Below are positions 3,041 through 57,711 of a stretch of DNA of 64,000 nt, in pieces. Every line of letters starts with the position of its first letter. The stretch's first letter is position 1. The DNA is from Escherichia coli (GTDB lineage: Bacteria; Pseudomonadota; Gammaproteobacteria; Enterobacterales; Enterobacteriaceae). The DNA is taken from NCBI RefSeq assembly GCF_045037415.1, contig NZ_CP173438.1. The stretch is one strand, 5' to 3'. The position numbers were made by a program, and so were the translations under genes. The notes under the pieces were generated by a model that saw nothing but the letters and a program-made list of their open reading frames with translations, was not told where the DNA came from and searched no databases.

Positions 3041-4318
3041 TTACTTGCTGCTAGCCATTGCGGGGGCGCTATCAGCAGTACGAATTTTTTGGAACAGCAA
3101 AAAGGTAAAGATGATCACCATGCCAAGCGCCGCCATGCCCATTAGCCACATGTTGCGATAGGCTTCTGCAGCGGGCAGGGTGTCTTGCCAGTAGCCGATA
3201 ATCGGGTAAACGAAGACATCCGGCAGGAATCCAATCACCGAACAAATACCTACCGTGGTGCCCATAATGTAAGACGGTGTTCTCGCTTCGCCAGGGCAGG
3301 CCCAGTACAGCCCGCGTGAGGCGTAACAGGTGAATCCCAGTAATAAAATCAAGCCAATCCCCATCGCGACCGATTGCGGGTTAGAGTTCGTGACGAGCAG
3401 GGCTGTCAACGCCAGCAAACCGATGATGGAAAGGATTTGGACCACGCGGGTAGGGGATTTCACTTTACTGTAGGTGGTGATAATGCCGCCAAGTGGGCCG
3501 CACAGCGCGCGGAAGATTTTGTTGATCACAATCCCCATGTAGCTCGCCGCCACCAGCGACATGCCGTACATTTCGGTCAGATAGTTGGTGGAGTAACTCA
3601 GAATGGCGTAGATGGTGAAGACACCAAAAATCACCATGCTGCAATACCAGGTAGTGCTGATGCGCAAAACGGCCAGGATGTCGCTAAGCTGGAATGACTG
3701 TTTTTCTTCGTTATTGGCACTGCGTAGGTTGTTGTTATCGCTAACAAAAAACCAACACAAAATGCCCAGCAGAATGTAAACCACACTATAGATAATAATG
3801 ACCGTTTTCAGGCTGGCGCTGTCATCCGGTGCAAAGCGAGAAAAGACCCACATGGTAAACACCGCCAGCGACATTACACCGACGCCGCGCAGCCCTTCCA
3901 TCCAGCCCATAATTTTCCCTTGCTCGCTATGATCGCCCAGCAACGATGCGGCTTTAATCGACACCGACCACAGCATTAAAATCGTCGTTATCGCAAAGGC
4001 GACCTGAATACAGAGCATTACCCACAGCGGTGGATATGTTGCCATTAACAGACCCAGTAATCCGGTAATGATCATCGCGGAAGTAATCATTTTGCGATGT
4101 GAAAATTTATCGGCAATAACGCCGCTAGGGGCATAGAAAATAATGGCCGCAATACCAAAGGTACTCATTATTAAACCTATCTCGGTATTGCTGAATCCCA
4201 TAAATTTTGCCATGGGAATTTGATAAATATAACGTAAATAAGCCAGGTCGAAACTAACGCCGCCGCTAAAACTAATTATCGCGAGGGTTATCCAACGGCG
4301 ATATGAGTTGTGTTGCAT
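3041..4318 (-). CDS. yqcE: MFS transporter
   Basis: 425-aa ORF, about 12 hydrophobic segments; 26 bp upstream of ygcE, likely co-transcribed. Confidence 0.85.
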   Translation of the reverse strand: MQHNSYRRWITLAIISFSGGVSFDLAYLRYIYQIPMAKFMGFSNTEIGLIMSTFGIAAIIFYAPSGVIADKFSHRKMITSAMIITGLLGLLMATYPPLWVMLCIQVAFAITTILMLWSVSIKAASLLGDHSEQGKIMGWMEGLRGVGVMSLAVFTMWVFSRFAPDDSASLKTVIIIYSVVYILLGILCWFFVSDNNNLRSANNEEKQSFQLSDILAVLRISTTWYCSMVIFGVFTIYAILSYSTNYLTEMYGMSLVAASYMGIVINKIFRALCGPLGGIITTYSKVKSPTRVVQILSIIGLLALTALLVTNSNPQSVAMGIGLILLLGFTCYASRGLYWACPGEARTPSYIMGTTVGICSVIGFLPDVFVYPIIGYWQDTLPAAEAYRNMWLMGMAALGMVIIFTFLLFQKIRTADSAPAMASSK

Positions 4319-4496
4319 ATCGTATTCCCATTTGTAATAGACAAAAAAAAGAGAAAAGTAAGCCGCCCTTTCAGGTGGATTACTTTTCTCAGGTCTCTAG
4401 TAATTGCAATAAGAAATAACATGGAAAGCAGAGGTGTTGTGTGAGAGTAATCACGCTTCTGCTTTTTTAAATTATTTGACAATACGAACATCACAC

Positions 4497-4512
4497 TGTG
4501 ATTACGATCACA
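4497..4512. promoter_or_regulatory. CRP binding site, perfect consensus half-sites TGTGA-N6-TCACA
   Basis: TGTGATTACGATCACA read directly; lies in the divergent yqcE / ygcW promoter region, flanked by TTGACA (4476-4481) and TAAAAT (4535-4540). Confidence 0.5.
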
Positions 4513-4565
4513 TTAGCAGTTATGTCCTTATGCTAAAAATTATCTCCAGTTACCAGAGATAATGA

Positions 4566-4612
4566 GAAAGGTAACTTCCCTCTCGCGGGGGAAGTTACCT
4601 TTCTTTTTTTTT
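4566..4612 (+). terminator. intrinsic terminator / attenuator in the ygcW 5' leader
   Basis: 15-bp perfect stem GAAAGGTAACTTCCC / GGGAAGTTACCTTTC with 8-nt loop, followed by 9 consecutive T; ends 24 nt before the ygcW ATG; no plus-strand gene upstream. Confidence 0.6.
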
Positions 4613-4636
4613 GCCTTACGGAAATTGGAGCTAACT

Positions 4637-5422
4637 ATGTCAATCGAATCTCTCAATGCGTTCTCAATGGATTTTTTCTCCCTGAAAGGTAAAACAGCAA
4701 TTGTTACCGGCGGGAATAGCGGTTTAGGCCAGGCATTTGCCATGGCGTTGGCCAAAGCTGGCGCAAATGTCTTTATTCCTAGTTTCGTCAAAGATAACGG
4801 CGAAACAAAGGAAATGATTGAAAAACAGGGCGTTGAAGTTGATTTTATGCAGGTGGATATCACCGCAGAAGGCGCGCCGCAGAAGATTATCGCTGCCTGC
4901 TGTGAGCGCTTCGGTACCGTCGATATTCTGGTCAATAATGCCGGTATTTGTAAGCTGAATAAGGTGCTGGACTTTGGTCGTGCCGACTGGGACCCGATGA
5001 TTGACGTGAACCTGACCGCCGCATTCGAGTTAAGCTACGAAGCGGCAAAAATTATGATCCCGCAGAAAAGCGGTAAAATCATTAATATCTGTTCATTGTT
5101 CTCTTACTTAGGTGGTCAATGGTCACCTGCTTATTCTGCCACTAAACATGCTCTTGCCGGATTCACCAAAGCCTATTGCGATGAATTAGGCCAATATAAT
5201 ATTCAGGTGAATGGTATTGCTCCTGGTTATTATGCAACCGATATTACGCTGGCGACCCGTAGTAATCCAGAAACTAACCAGCGTGTTCTTGATCATATTC
5301 CGGCAAACCGTTGGGGTGATACTCAGGATTTAATGGGGGCAGCCGTATTCCTCGCAAGTCCGGCATCGAATTATGTCAACGGACATTTATTAGTGGTTGA
5401 TGGCGGTTATTTAGTGCGCTAA
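4637..5422 (+). CDS. ygcW: short-chain dehydrogenase/reductase (SDR), KduD-like
   Basis: 261 aa from the ATG at 4637; TGGNSGLG Rossmann motif; the upstream in-frame extension from 4562 overlaps the terminator hairpin and is rejected. Confidence 0.85.
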   Translation: MSIESLNAFSMDFFSLKGKTAIVTGGNSGLGQAFAMALAKAGANVFIPSFVKDNGETKEMIEKQGVEVDFMQVDITAEGAPQKIIAACCERFGTVDILVNNAGICKLNKVLDFGRADWDPMIDVNLTAAFELSYEAAKIMIPQKSGKIINICSLFSYLGGQWSPAYSATKHALAGFTKAYCDELGQYNIQVNGIAPGYYATDITLATRSNPETNQRVLDHIPANRWGDTQDLMGAAVFLASPASNYVNGHLLVVDGGYLVR

Positions 5423-54553: not shown

Positions 54554-54960
54554 GTGAAAAGGTGGTGTTCAGTCAACTGAGCCGTAAATTTATTGATGAG
54601 AACGATGCCACGCCCGCCGAGGCGCAGCAGGTGGTCTATTACAGCCTGGCGATTGGTCACCACCTTGGGGTTATCGATTGCCTGGAAGCGGCACTTACCT
54701 GCCCGTGGGATGACTATCTGGCATGGATTGCCACTCTGGAGGCGGGCAGCGAAGCCCGCCGTAAAATGGAAGGCGTGCCGAAATATGGTGAGATCGTCAT
54801 CGACATTAACCATGTGCCGATGCTGGCCAACGCATTCGATAAAGCCCGGGCAGCGCAAACTTCGCAGCAGAAGGAATGGAGTACAATGCTGTTAAGTATG
54901 CTGCATGATATTCATCAGGAAAACGCCATCTATTTGATGGTGAGGAGACTGCGTGACTGA
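54550..54960 (+). CDS. hycH: formate hydrogenlyase maturation protein HycH
   Basis: 136-aa ORF overlapping hycG and hycI. Confidence 0.9.
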
Positions 54961-55420
54961 CGTTTTACTTTGTGTTGGCAATAGCATGATGGGCGATGAT
55001 GGCGCAGGCCCGCTACTGGCGGAAAAGTGCGCCGCCGCGCCGAAAGGTAACTGGGTAGTGATTGACGGCGGTAGCGCACCGGAAAACGACATTGTCGCTA
55101 TCCGCGAACTGCGCCCGACACGGCTGCTGATTGTCGACGCCACGGATATGGGGCTAAACCCTGGCGAGATCCGCATCATCGACCCGGCTGACATCGCCGA
55201 GATGTTTATGATGACTACCCATAACATGCCGCTGAACTATCTTATCGACCAGTTGAAAGAAGATATTGGCGAAGTGATTTTCCTTGGCATCCAGCCGGAT
55301 ATCGTCGGCTTTTACTACCCGATGACTCAGCCGATTAAAGATGCGGTGGAAACGGTGTATCAGCGGCTGGAAGGCTGGGAAGGAAATGGCGGCTTCGCGC
55401 AGTTAGCGGTGGAAGAATAA
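54953..55420 (+). CDS. hycI: hydrogenase 3 maturation endopeptidase
   Basis: 155-aa ORF; last gene of the hyc operon. Confidence 0.9.
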   Translation: MTDVLLCVGNSMMGDDGAGPLLAEKCAAAPKGNWVVIDGGSAPENDIVAIRELRPTRLLIVDATDMGLNPGEIRIIDPADIAEMFMMTTHNMPLNYLIDQLKEDIGEVIFLGIQPDIVGFYYPMTQPIKDAVETVYQRLEGWEGNGGFAQLAVEE

Positions 55421-55655
55421 TTCTTCATTAGGGAATTCAGGGAATTGAACATCAAAACAGGGATGTGCGCTTTTTTATTGAGCTTAGTGCTGCCTGCACA
55501 GGCCACCAGCTTTACCGAATATCTGCCAATGAGTGACAGCGAATACGCGCAAAAGCGGGCGCTGAAACCTCTCCTGACCATGCCTTATGATGCCGAGCAA
55601 ACCTGGCATTTTAGAAAAGTGGGCGTCTGACACGTTACTACAGAGAGAACAAAGA

Positions 55656-56075
55656 ATGACTGCTAATGCTGCACGCGCTGTTAAAGCAACAAGAGAACTG
55701 GTCAATGCAGTCCCCTTTCTGGGAGGCAGTGACTCAGAAGATGATTACCGTGAAGCACTGGAACTGGTCGAATATTTGATTGAAGAAGATGATACTAATC
55801 CACTTATCGACTTTCTGGCGAGCCGCATTGCAGAATATGAAAACAATAACGAAAAGTTTGCAGAGTTCGACAAAGCCGTTGCAGCAATGCCTGTTGGTGT
55901 GGCGTTACTTCGCACGCTGATTGATCAACATAATCTGACCTATGCAGATTTGAAGAACGAAATCGGCTCTAAATCCCTGGTCAGCCAGATTTTATCTGGA
56001 CAACGTTCCCTGACGATATCCCACATTAAGGCACTTTCAGCCCGATTTGGCGTTAAGCCGGAATGGTTTCTTTGA
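55656..56075 (+). CDS. XRE-family transcriptional regulator with C-terminal helix-turn-helix and acidic N-terminal domain (function unknown)
   Basis: 139 aa from the ATG at 55656 (longer ORF from 55587 lacks an RBS); C-terminal HTH LTYADLKNEIGSKSLVSQILSGQRSLTISHIKALSARFGV; acidic N-terminal half (SDSEDDYREALELVEYLIEEDD). Confidence 0.6.
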   Translation: MTANAARAVKATRELVNAVPFLGGSDSEDDYREALELVEYLIEEDDTNPLIDFLASRIAEYENNNEKFAEFDKAVAAMPVGVALLRTLIDQHNLTYADLKNEIGSKSLVSQILSGQRSLTISHIKALSARFGVKPEWFL

Positions 56076-56125
56076 CTGATGGCAGACGCTAAATCGCCTG
56101 ATGCGCTACGCCTATCGGGCTTTGA

Positions 56126-56157
56126 AAGGGCGCAGATTCTTAATTTTGCGCGCCCTT
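56126..56157. terminator. hairpin between convergent XRE gene and DUF4259-like gene
   Basis: Stem AAGGGCGC / GCGCCCTT with 16-nt loop, followed by GTTTGTCATT on the plus strand. Confidence 0.4.
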
Positions 56158-56166
56158 GTTTGTCAT

Positions 56167-56604
56167 TCAGGCTGTTGTCTTTACTACTCTTAATTTATCA
56201 GTAAGCTCAATCAGATATGCTTTTGCTTTTTCGCGTGCTCGCCCCTCGAAAAGCATTATCCACTCATGTGTGTCGTCGATTGTTTGTAAACGGCCCTGGA
56301 GTTTTTTGCTGAAAGTCGACGTGAGCTGATAACCGTCGAGTTGATCAATTTGTTTACTCGATGTGATTTTTTTCCCGGCTGCTTTTTGAATGATAAGTTC
56401 AACGAAACCGATAACATTATTATCGTAATTATCGTAGAGAAATTCTTCATCTCCCTGAAATCCGAACAAATCTTCATGCTGGCTTAAGCGTTGAACAATT
56501 GACTCGGCATCAAAGGTCGAATCATCTTGCAGTTGTTCCTCTACCCAATTAATCAAATCCAGCCCTTCGTCGCTTTCGAGAGCCTCCATTCCCCATGAAC
56601 CCAT
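56167..56604 (-). CDS. DUF4259-like hypothetical protein
   Basis: 145-aa ORF starting MGSWGMEALESDEGLDLINW (the MGxWG...D..LD N-terminus typical of DUF4259, assigned from memory); RBS AGGTAAGGA upstream. Confidence 0.6.
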   Translation of the reverse strand: MGSWGMEALESDEGLDLINWVEEQLQDDSTFDAESIVQRLSQHEDLFGFQGDEEFLYDNYDNNVIGFVELIIQKAAGKKITSSKQIDQLDGYQLTSTFSKKLQGRLQTIDDTHEWIMLFEGRAREKAKAYLIELTDKLRVVKTTA

Positions 56605-56896
56605 TTTGTATCCTTACCTGTTATTTCAGTCGAAATAGTATTATTCAATAAAGGTTCATCGCTAATCTGCGATGAACCTCAAAATACAATCATATGGATA
56701 GCTGACAAAGTGGTCGTTGTTCACGCCGTATCCGGCACGGTTGCTTCCCTTAAATCCTCCCCGTTACTGGCAATTACTTTTTTATACCACCAGAACGACT
56801 TGTCGGAAAAAAGTACCCAGATGTGGACTGGCAACGATAAAATATTCATTAGAAAACGGATTCTCTCTGCCTTACTACGATAAATACTGTCATCAC

Positions 56897-56924
56897 ATGT
56901 CATCGACACTAGTGTCGATGACAT
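56897..56924. promoter_or_regulatory. perfect 28-bp palindrome ATGTCATCGACACTAGTGTCGATGACAT; candidate FhlA-type activator site for hydN-hypF
   Basis: All 14 base pairs of the dyad verified position by position; contains the TCGACA / TGTCGA hexamers also clustered in the hyp-hyc control region; about 110 bp upstream of the hydN ATG. Confidence 0.4.
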
Positions 56925-57031
56925 CGTTTTTCCTGTAGTACAGAATTTAATTTCCTTAAATAACAGTAAATTAAAAACTGGCATGATTTGTGAATGTATC
57001 GGCGCATTAACTGTTATTGCTGGAGAATTTG

Positions 57032-57559
57032 ATGAACCGTTTCATCATTGCTGACGCGAGTAAATGTATTGGTTGCCGTACCTGTGAAGTGGCGTGCGTG
57101 GTTTCTCATCAGGAAAATCAGGACTGTGCATCGCTGACCCCGGAAACATTTTTACCGCGAATCCATGTCATTAAAGGTGTGAACATTTCCACGGCGACAG
57201 TCTGCCGTCAGTGTGAAGATGCACCGTGCGCTAACGTCTGCCCGAATGGTGCTATCAGCCGTGATAAAGGGTTTGTTCATGTCATGCAGGAACGTTGTAT
57301 TGGTTGCAAAACCTGCGTTGTGGCTTGCCCATATGGTGCGATGGAAGTGGTGGTGCGTCCGGTGATTCGCAACAGCGGCGCAGGGCTGAATGTACGGGCT
57401 GACAAAGCCGAAGCCAATAAATGCGACCTGTGCAACCATCGTGAAGACGGCCCGGCGTGTATGGCGGCTTGCCCGACCCATGCGCTGATTTGTGTCGATC
57501 GTAATAAACTTGAACAACTGAGCGCAGAAAAACGCCGCCGCACGGCGCTGATGTTCTAA
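57032..57559 (+). CDS. hydN: electron transport protein HydN (4Fe-4S ferredoxin-type)
   Basis: 175 aa from the ATG at 57032; four CxxCxxCxxxCP-type clusters. Confidence 0.95.
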
Positions 57560-57711
57560 AAATCTTACAGAACTGTTCTGGTATCAAAGGAATTCCCGGA
57601 AATATTCGTAGAATACGAAGCGGGCAGTATCGCCGACCTGTGACTGCCGGATGCGACGCTGTCGTGTCCGGCTGGGCGGGTTACGCAATTCATGATGGCG
57701 GGAATAACTCA

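Follow-up and report, generated by a model that had tools for sequence, protein, structure and literature searches.

The stretch of DNA analysed here, referred to as the window, comprised 64,000 nucleotides of an Escherichia coli genome. Between 54953 bp and 55420 bp on the + strand it encoded hycI, which closes the formate hydrogenlyase (hyc) operon and was recognised by a match to the Pfam family HycI (E = 1.5e-29) and by the RefSeq annotation of an identical locus. A small open reading frame (55445–55630, +) followed on the same strand after a gap of 24 nt. It was 61 codons long when read from a TTG codon at 55445 and 55 codons long when read from an ATG codon at 55463, and both versions ended at a TGA stop codon at 55628–55630. 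The antitoxin gene higA (55656–56075, +; 139 amino acids) began 25 nt after this stop codon. The sequence-only reading had placed a 55-codon frame from the ATG at 55463 just after hycI, which the sequence and the list of open reading frames bore out. Its remark that the frame had no convincing ribosome binding site held for that ATG but less so for the TTG at 55445, which was preceded at a distance of 10 nt by the motif AGGGA. The 61 amino acid product read from this TTG begins MNIKTGM and is the version called by RefSeq as a 'hypothetical protein' (WP_001312049.1) in a genome that does not differ from the window over this region; the corresponding codon in E. coli strain 38 is ATG. Both the 61 and the 55 amino acid sequences were already public as exact matches on more than 1,000 contigs, where they were named 'hypothetical protein' or 'periplasmic or exported protein', the latter also being the UniRef name for the product.

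The first 20 codons of the frame (55445–55504, +; MNIKTGMCAFLLSLVLPAQA) were predicted from hydropathy and from the alignment of homologues to encode a Sec-type signal peptide cleaved before T21. The n-region was charged (K4), the h-region spanned residues 7–16 with 9-residue Kyte-Doolittle means of up to 2.9, and small residues occupied positions −3 and −1, which is the arrangement recognised by signal peptidase I. The A18-Q19-A20 motif preceding T21 shared its alignment column with an A-x-A-type motif and a T in the Salmonella and Klebsiella homologues. The signal-peptide-like N-terminus and AQA cleavage-type motif noticed earlier are therefore upheld, and the N-terminus is predicted to be a real, inherited Sec-type signal peptide.

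The 61 amino acid sequence matched no Pfam family at E ≤ 1 and no NCBIfam family. Comparison with PDB sequences returned one weak match (E = 0.033), which was regarded as chance. An Rfam scan of 55300–57100 at E ≤ 1 gave a single match, which lay outside the reading frame and far below threshold; as no credible match was obtained, a known RNA element does not explain the locus. Literature searches on the hycI–higA locus, orphan HigA and the RefSeq accessions returned nothing bearing on the locus. The length of the frame is by itself not above chance, as 58 open reading frames of at least 30 amino acids overlapped the 4.5-kb stretch around it and two 73 amino acid antisense frames spanned the same bases. 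What sets it above chance is that its product is 98% identical to the N-terminal part of a conserved 253 amino acid protein.

This relationship was traced by using the 235 nt after hycI as a query, which was found in 2,299 of 5,426 complete E. coli genomes. In many of the 2,299 the homology ended at base 206 of the query, equivalent to 55626 in the window. E. coli strain 38 (L002) has the order hycI, a gene for a 253 amino acid hypothetical protein (WP_001026446.1), higB, higA and ascB. Pairwise blastn showed the window to be colinear with this locus over 54901–55626 and again from 55627 onwards, with L002 positions 3707–4738 absent from the window. Alignment with a locus from assemblies labelled Escherichia albertii (L009/L010), which retains the undeleted order of the window (hycI, a 251 amino acid gene, higB, higA, a 142 amino acid gene on the − strand, hydN and hypF), gave 95.1% identity over 54901–55626 and 95.7% over 55627–57700, with exactly 1,032 bp missing from the window between the two segments. 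The breakpoint against both references lies at 55626/55627. The join is blunt, and the breakpoint read-out revealed no microhomology at the junction.

The left side of the junction ends ...AAAGTGGGCGT, within codon 61 of the 253 amino acid gene. The right side starts CTGACACGTTAC..., which is the final 33 nt of higB including its stop codon (55627–55659, +; aligned to L002 4739–4771); this relic overlaps the start of higA (ATGA). The two frames do not match, and the fused reading is GTG GGC GT|C TGA. Codon 61 was thus made by the junction, although it still specifies Val, and the TGA after it, which lies wholly inside the higB relic, is read as a stop codon because the junction shifts the frame. 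Over its 61 residues the product was 98% identical to residues 1–61 of the full-length protein. The frame consists of codons 1–60 of a 253-codon exported-protein gene followed by a codon and a stop codon created by the deletion, and the possible gene for a small secreted protein suggested by the sequence-only reading is instead the 5′ quarter of a longer gene, terminated by accident at a deletion junction. The reverse event, insertion of the 1,032-bp segment into a 61-codon ancestor, conflicts with the full-length orthologues found in Salmonella and Klebsiella.

The parent gene belongs to a family of 250–269 amino acid exported proteins encoded just downstream of hycI in E. coli, in the E. albertii-labelled assemblies, in Salmonella and in Klebsiella spallanzanii, where its members carry the annotation 'hypothetical protein'. 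The E. coli members, including that of strain 38 (L002 3525–4286), are 253–257 amino acids long. Compared with the 253 amino acid query, identity was 83% for the 251 amino acid protein of the E. albertii-labelled assemblies (L009 4001–4756), about 71% for the 269 amino acid protein of Salmonella enterica (L007 4001–4810) and 63% for the 250 amino acid protein of K. spallanzanii (L008 4001–4753). Metagenomic sequences of 314–348 amino acids shared 35–49% identity; these distant homologues were not located beside hyc genes and their contexts were unrelated, which makes a role of the parent protein as a dedicated hyc accessory less likely. In the E. coli and E. albertii-labelled loci higB–higA comes next after the parent gene, and the Salmonella order is hycI, orf269, hydN and hypF. 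In K. spallanzanii the orthologue has hycI on one side and the asc genes on the other, and a small symE gene on the opposite strand is all that separates it from hycI. Two symE toxin genes and a parDE pair flank the orthologue in that species (L008 3422–5814), and the hycI–asc interval appears to be a toxin-antitoxin insertion hotspot across genera. The parent gene is absent from K-12.

A hydrophobic N-terminal segment was present in all homologues of the family. The small frame of the window retains this signal peptide together with the family segment YLPMSDxEYAQKRALKPLL, and it lies downstream of hycI on the same strand as the complete genes do. It ends at residue 61 and lacks the conserved core at residues ~82–242. 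The alignment has 41 nearly invariant columns, of which 37 fall within residues 82–242 (for example D108, D110, D116, G143-R144-P145 and G183-Y184-W185); the window has lost this entire stretch. The parent protein matched no Pfam or NCBIfam family. Its AlphaFold model was all-beta and of moderate-to-low confidence (pLDDT 60, with residues 40–170 at 75–88), and a Foldseek search of the PDB with this model (pLDDT 60) returned weak matches to integrin-alpha beta-propeller blades (best E = 8e-3, TM about 0.3), which serve at most as a lead. DxDxNG-like motifs were also seen in the parent protein.

The gene to the right of the junction was assigned as higA by its PGAP name, by Pfam (HTH_3, E = 2.1e-9) and by similarity to HigA of known structure (PDB 5IFG_B, E = 2.5e-35). 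The window HigA (WP_000126294.1) is identical to that of E. coli S88, of strain 38, where it is paired with HigB, and of strain 53. The toxin gene higB usually precedes higA. In L002 it is annotated at 4460–4771, and the intact protein matched Pfam HigB_toxin (PF09907; E = 3.7e-23); in the window higA is intact and higB is reduced to its last 33 nt. From its place before higA the small frame had at first been taken for a truncated HigB; this was ruled out, as HigB_toxin did not match it and its sequence is the N-terminal part of the protein encoded upstream. A consensus scan located a promoter-like site upstream of higB (L002 4360–4388), inside the deleted interval, and a weak promoter-like site inside the stub (55562–55591), and it revealed nothing resembling a terminator from hycI through the stub to higA; these promoter and terminator scans yielded consensus matches at chance level (2 found versus 2.5 expected). 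Compared with alleles both with and without higB, higA carried 0–1 non-synonymous versus 7–14 synonymous differences, which suggests that the orphan gene is under strong purifying selection and that the antitoxin is still used. The higA frame is open upstream as far as an ATG at 55587 (55587–56075, +; 162 amino acids), and some gene callers annotate 169 amino acid versions of HigA. Rare database variants (P0042–P0045) carry frameshifts in the stub that generate 188–209 amino acid fusions of the signal peptide to HigA, some of which may be assembly errors.

Carriers of the junction were defined as genomes in which a 100-nt query centred on it was matched over at least 80% of its length. By this measure 830 of the 5,426 complete E. 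coli genomes carried the junction, among them S88, strains labelled ST131 and BH100N, and the strains sampled point to phylogroup B2 and its relatives. Non-carriers matched one half of the query, with the break exactly between bases 50 and 51. The full island was present in 748 of the 5,426. What follows the junction differs between two contexts: ascB in S88, and in the window a DUF4259-like gene, the asc operon having gone.

At least four further independent decay alleles were observed, with some clustering of breakpoints. In the strain 53 allele the 253 amino acid-type gene and higA were kept and higB was lost, with the right breakpoint 4 nt from that of the window. The L017/L019 allele combines a 532-bp internal deletion with loss of higB and leaves a stub of 60 or 66 amino acids ending ...VGVAGSVV; its left breakpoint is 7 nt from that of the window. 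In HS-02 a stub of 51 codons, unlike that of the window, is fused to the sequence beyond higA. Only a scar remains in K-12, consistent with a deletion between the GGGATGT direct repeats at both ends of the gene. The decay alleles were located at 2501–2800 in L017, 2501–2820 in L019, 3501–3672 in L003, 1616–1773 in L004 and 700–1530 in L005. Other lineages thus lost these genes in differing ways, and the parent gene and the toxin are repeatedly dispensable in E. coli. In a further locus, L014 (strain GN05064, about 1490–1515), a 9-nt tandem duplication (GGGAATTCA) was found in a AGGGAATTC-AGGGAATTG motif just before the TTG start.

The sequence-only reading had named conservation of the frame in relatives as a check. 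The 61-codon frame was intact in all six of the deletion-type loci read (five distinct sequences and one identical to the window); elsewhere the same gene either ran to 251–269 codons or was cut by other deletions. An open frame over 183 nt is usually expected at 3–6% divergence even without selection. Between the window and S88 the stub had four non-synonymous and two synonymous differences and higA had none and seven (one-sided Fisher p = 0.021); between the window and BH100N the stub again had four and two, and higA one and nine (p = 0.036). Among the deletion alleles non-synonymous changes in the stub reached 6.5 versus 1.5 synonymous, and pN/pS was 0.5–1.2 for the stub versus ≤0.04 for higA, ratios that rest on small counts. 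The N-terminal 60 codons of intact genes were also fairly relaxed, with 3–5 synonymous versus 1–5 non-synonymous differences. The pattern of substitution, small as the counts are, is supporting evidence for neutrality and not proof of it. Neither purifying selection on the frame nor a short family outside the deletion lineage, either of which would mark an independent small-protein gene, was found.

Downstream of higA the window encodes, at 56167–56604 on the − strand, a 145 amino acid protein with a sub-threshold match to DUF4259 (E = 0.0084). The gene also occurs in the E. albertii-labelled locus (142 amino acids) and is absent from S88, where ascB directly follows higA. Of the asc operon, the interval between higA and hydN in the window has kept 19 codons from the 3′-end of ascB (KSFWWYKKVIASNGEDL..., the same as in K-12 AscB) at 56745–56801 (−) and lacks ascG, ascF and the greater part of ascB. 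A perfect 28-nt palindrome (ATGTCATCGACACTAGTGTCGATGACAT) at 56897–56924, about 90 nt upstream of hydN, was 93% conserved in the E. albertii-labelled locus and may be a candidate regulator-binding site for the hydN–hypF promoter.

The small frame is, with high probability, the 5′ remnant of a gene cut by the 1,032-bp deletion, and so pseudogene-like, rather than a new small-protein gene. The ancestral order was hycI, a gene of ~253 codons for an exported protein, and the type II pair higB–higA. In the lineage of the window a single deletion of 1,032 bp joined codon 61 of the exported-protein gene, out of frame, to the final 33 nt of higB. The native start, the signal peptide and some 40 residues of the mature protein were spared, and nearly all of the conserved core was removed. 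The same event took the higB toxin and the candidate higBA promoter region, and so orphaned higA; to our knowledge, loss of the toxin with retention of the antitoxin is the only viable order of loss in toxin-antitoxin systems. The stub is probably without a function in its own right. Because the native 5′-end was kept and the way from hycI through the stub to higA holds no terminator-like site, the stub is probably still transcribed, through read-through of hyc or from signals upstream of the stub itself, and perhaps translated. A short exported peptide may be made from it and then degraded. At most, the stub would be a leader by which transcription reaches higA. As higA is under purifying selection and would have no promoter of its own, transcription through the stub may be the most economical source of HigA. 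The suggestion in the sequence-only reading that the frame may be non-coding thus came near the truth, in that a non-functional remnant is probable.

Retention of a complete signal peptide and of the moderately conserved YLPMSDSEYAQKRALKPLL stretch is one counterpoint to the remnant reading, and an exported 41-residue peptide (TSFTEYLPMSD...RKVGV) is physically possible. It is nonetheless very unlikely that the frame encodes a bona fide small secreted protein, one of 61 amino acids that is exported, cut after AQA and released as a 41-residue peptide that acts in the periplasm or outside the cell, perhaps in a role gained after the truncation. The preserved start region, the frame that stays open in the six deletion-type loci although the five distinct ones diverge by up to 6%, its carriage by 830 genomes and the UniRef name would all fit such a protein. 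They are outweighed by a stop codon that is a by-product of the junction, by the loss of all but a few of the positions conserved in the family, by the predominance of non-synonymous changes given above and by sporadic frameshift variants that fuse the stub to HigA, and the whole gene has been discarded in other lineages. The short sequences seen (47–70 amino acids) were moreover all from Escherichia or Shigella and consisted of alternative starts, a contig-end fragment and another deletion stub, and they form no independent short family. Two further readings are close to negligible. One takes the frame for a chance product of non-coding spacer with a fortuitously hydrophobic start, for which the abundance of frames of such length in all frames here and the poor Shine-Dalgarno sequence before the ATG could be cited; it is refuted by the 98% identity over 61 residues and by synteny after hycI across four genera. 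The other makes it a replacement toxin, a small hydrophobic peptide that partners HigA instead of HigB. Such a peptide would occupy the usual place of a toxin gene directly upstream of higA, but the sequence resembles neither HigB_toxin nor any Pfam family, is no more than the N-terminal part of the adjacent exported protein, and is followed by a HigA identical to that of genomes that pair HigA with HigB.

A role of the stub as a functional leader or upstream ORF for higA, in which the peptide would be immaterial and the promoter and translation signals kept in the stub, or read-through from hyc, would drive the orphan antitoxin, is compatible with the remnant reading and would refine it; we consider it unlikely, though less so than the other alternatives. 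The candidate higBA promoter lay within the deleted interval, the stub ends 25 nt ahead of the higA start with no terminator-like site on the way from hycI, a weak promoter-like site lies in the stub itself, and a toxin-less higA under strong purifying selection must be expressed from somewhere. Against this, the promoter and terminator scans performed at chance level, and in strain 53 and in alleles of the L017 type another sequence precedes the retained higA, so that no particular leader seems to be required. A more specific proposal, that the orphan higA, its autoregulated promoter lost, is expressed through the stub as a 3′ extension of the hyc operon and so controlled by FhlA and formate, or, in a weaker variant, that the exported 41-residue peptide has gained a new function, is improbable. 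If the coupling to hyc were true, B2-type E. coli would make toxin-free HigA specifically in fermentation; this HigA could counter addiction to higBA elements that enter the cell or regulate transcription, and translation of the stub might matter for the coupling.

With the remnant reading preferred, the biological weight of the small frame is slight and its value for annotation somewhat greater. The 61 amino acid 'hypothetical' or 'periplasmic or exported' protein is best read as the product of a truncated gene, with an orphan antitoxin gene, higA, beside it, and in screens for small secreted proteins the frame would be a false positive. The locus illustrates that a single deletion can both disarm a toxin-antitoxin pair and put, where the toxin was, a misleading mini-ORF with a signal peptide. 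The parent gene is the more interesting item, as it encodes a conserved, uncharacterised exported protein after hycI in Salmonella, Klebsiella and many Escherichia.

Compared with the hycI-adjacent family of WP_001026446.1-like proteins, the remnant is alike in its start region, its signal peptide and its position after hycI. It differs in having only 61 of 253 codons and in the deletion of the beta-rich core, which makes it a fragment and not a functional member. 5′ gene fragments and orphan antitoxins are well-known outcomes of genome decay and of toxin-antitoxin erosion, and many truncated genes that keep their start are annotated as hypothetical proteins in this manner. Like other decayed type II loci of the HigB–HigA kind (the structure of E. 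coli HigBA being PDB 5IFG), the window has lost the toxin and kept an intact higA; unlike them, its deletion also cut an unrelated upstream gene and so placed the stub of a foreign gene in the toxin position. Among the N-terminal pseudogene fragments that automatic pipelines call 'hypothetical protein', the 61 amino acid RefSeq/PGAP call is likewise made in hundreds of genomes, and the remnant shows nothing unusual in this company, its record carrying no pseudogene flag.
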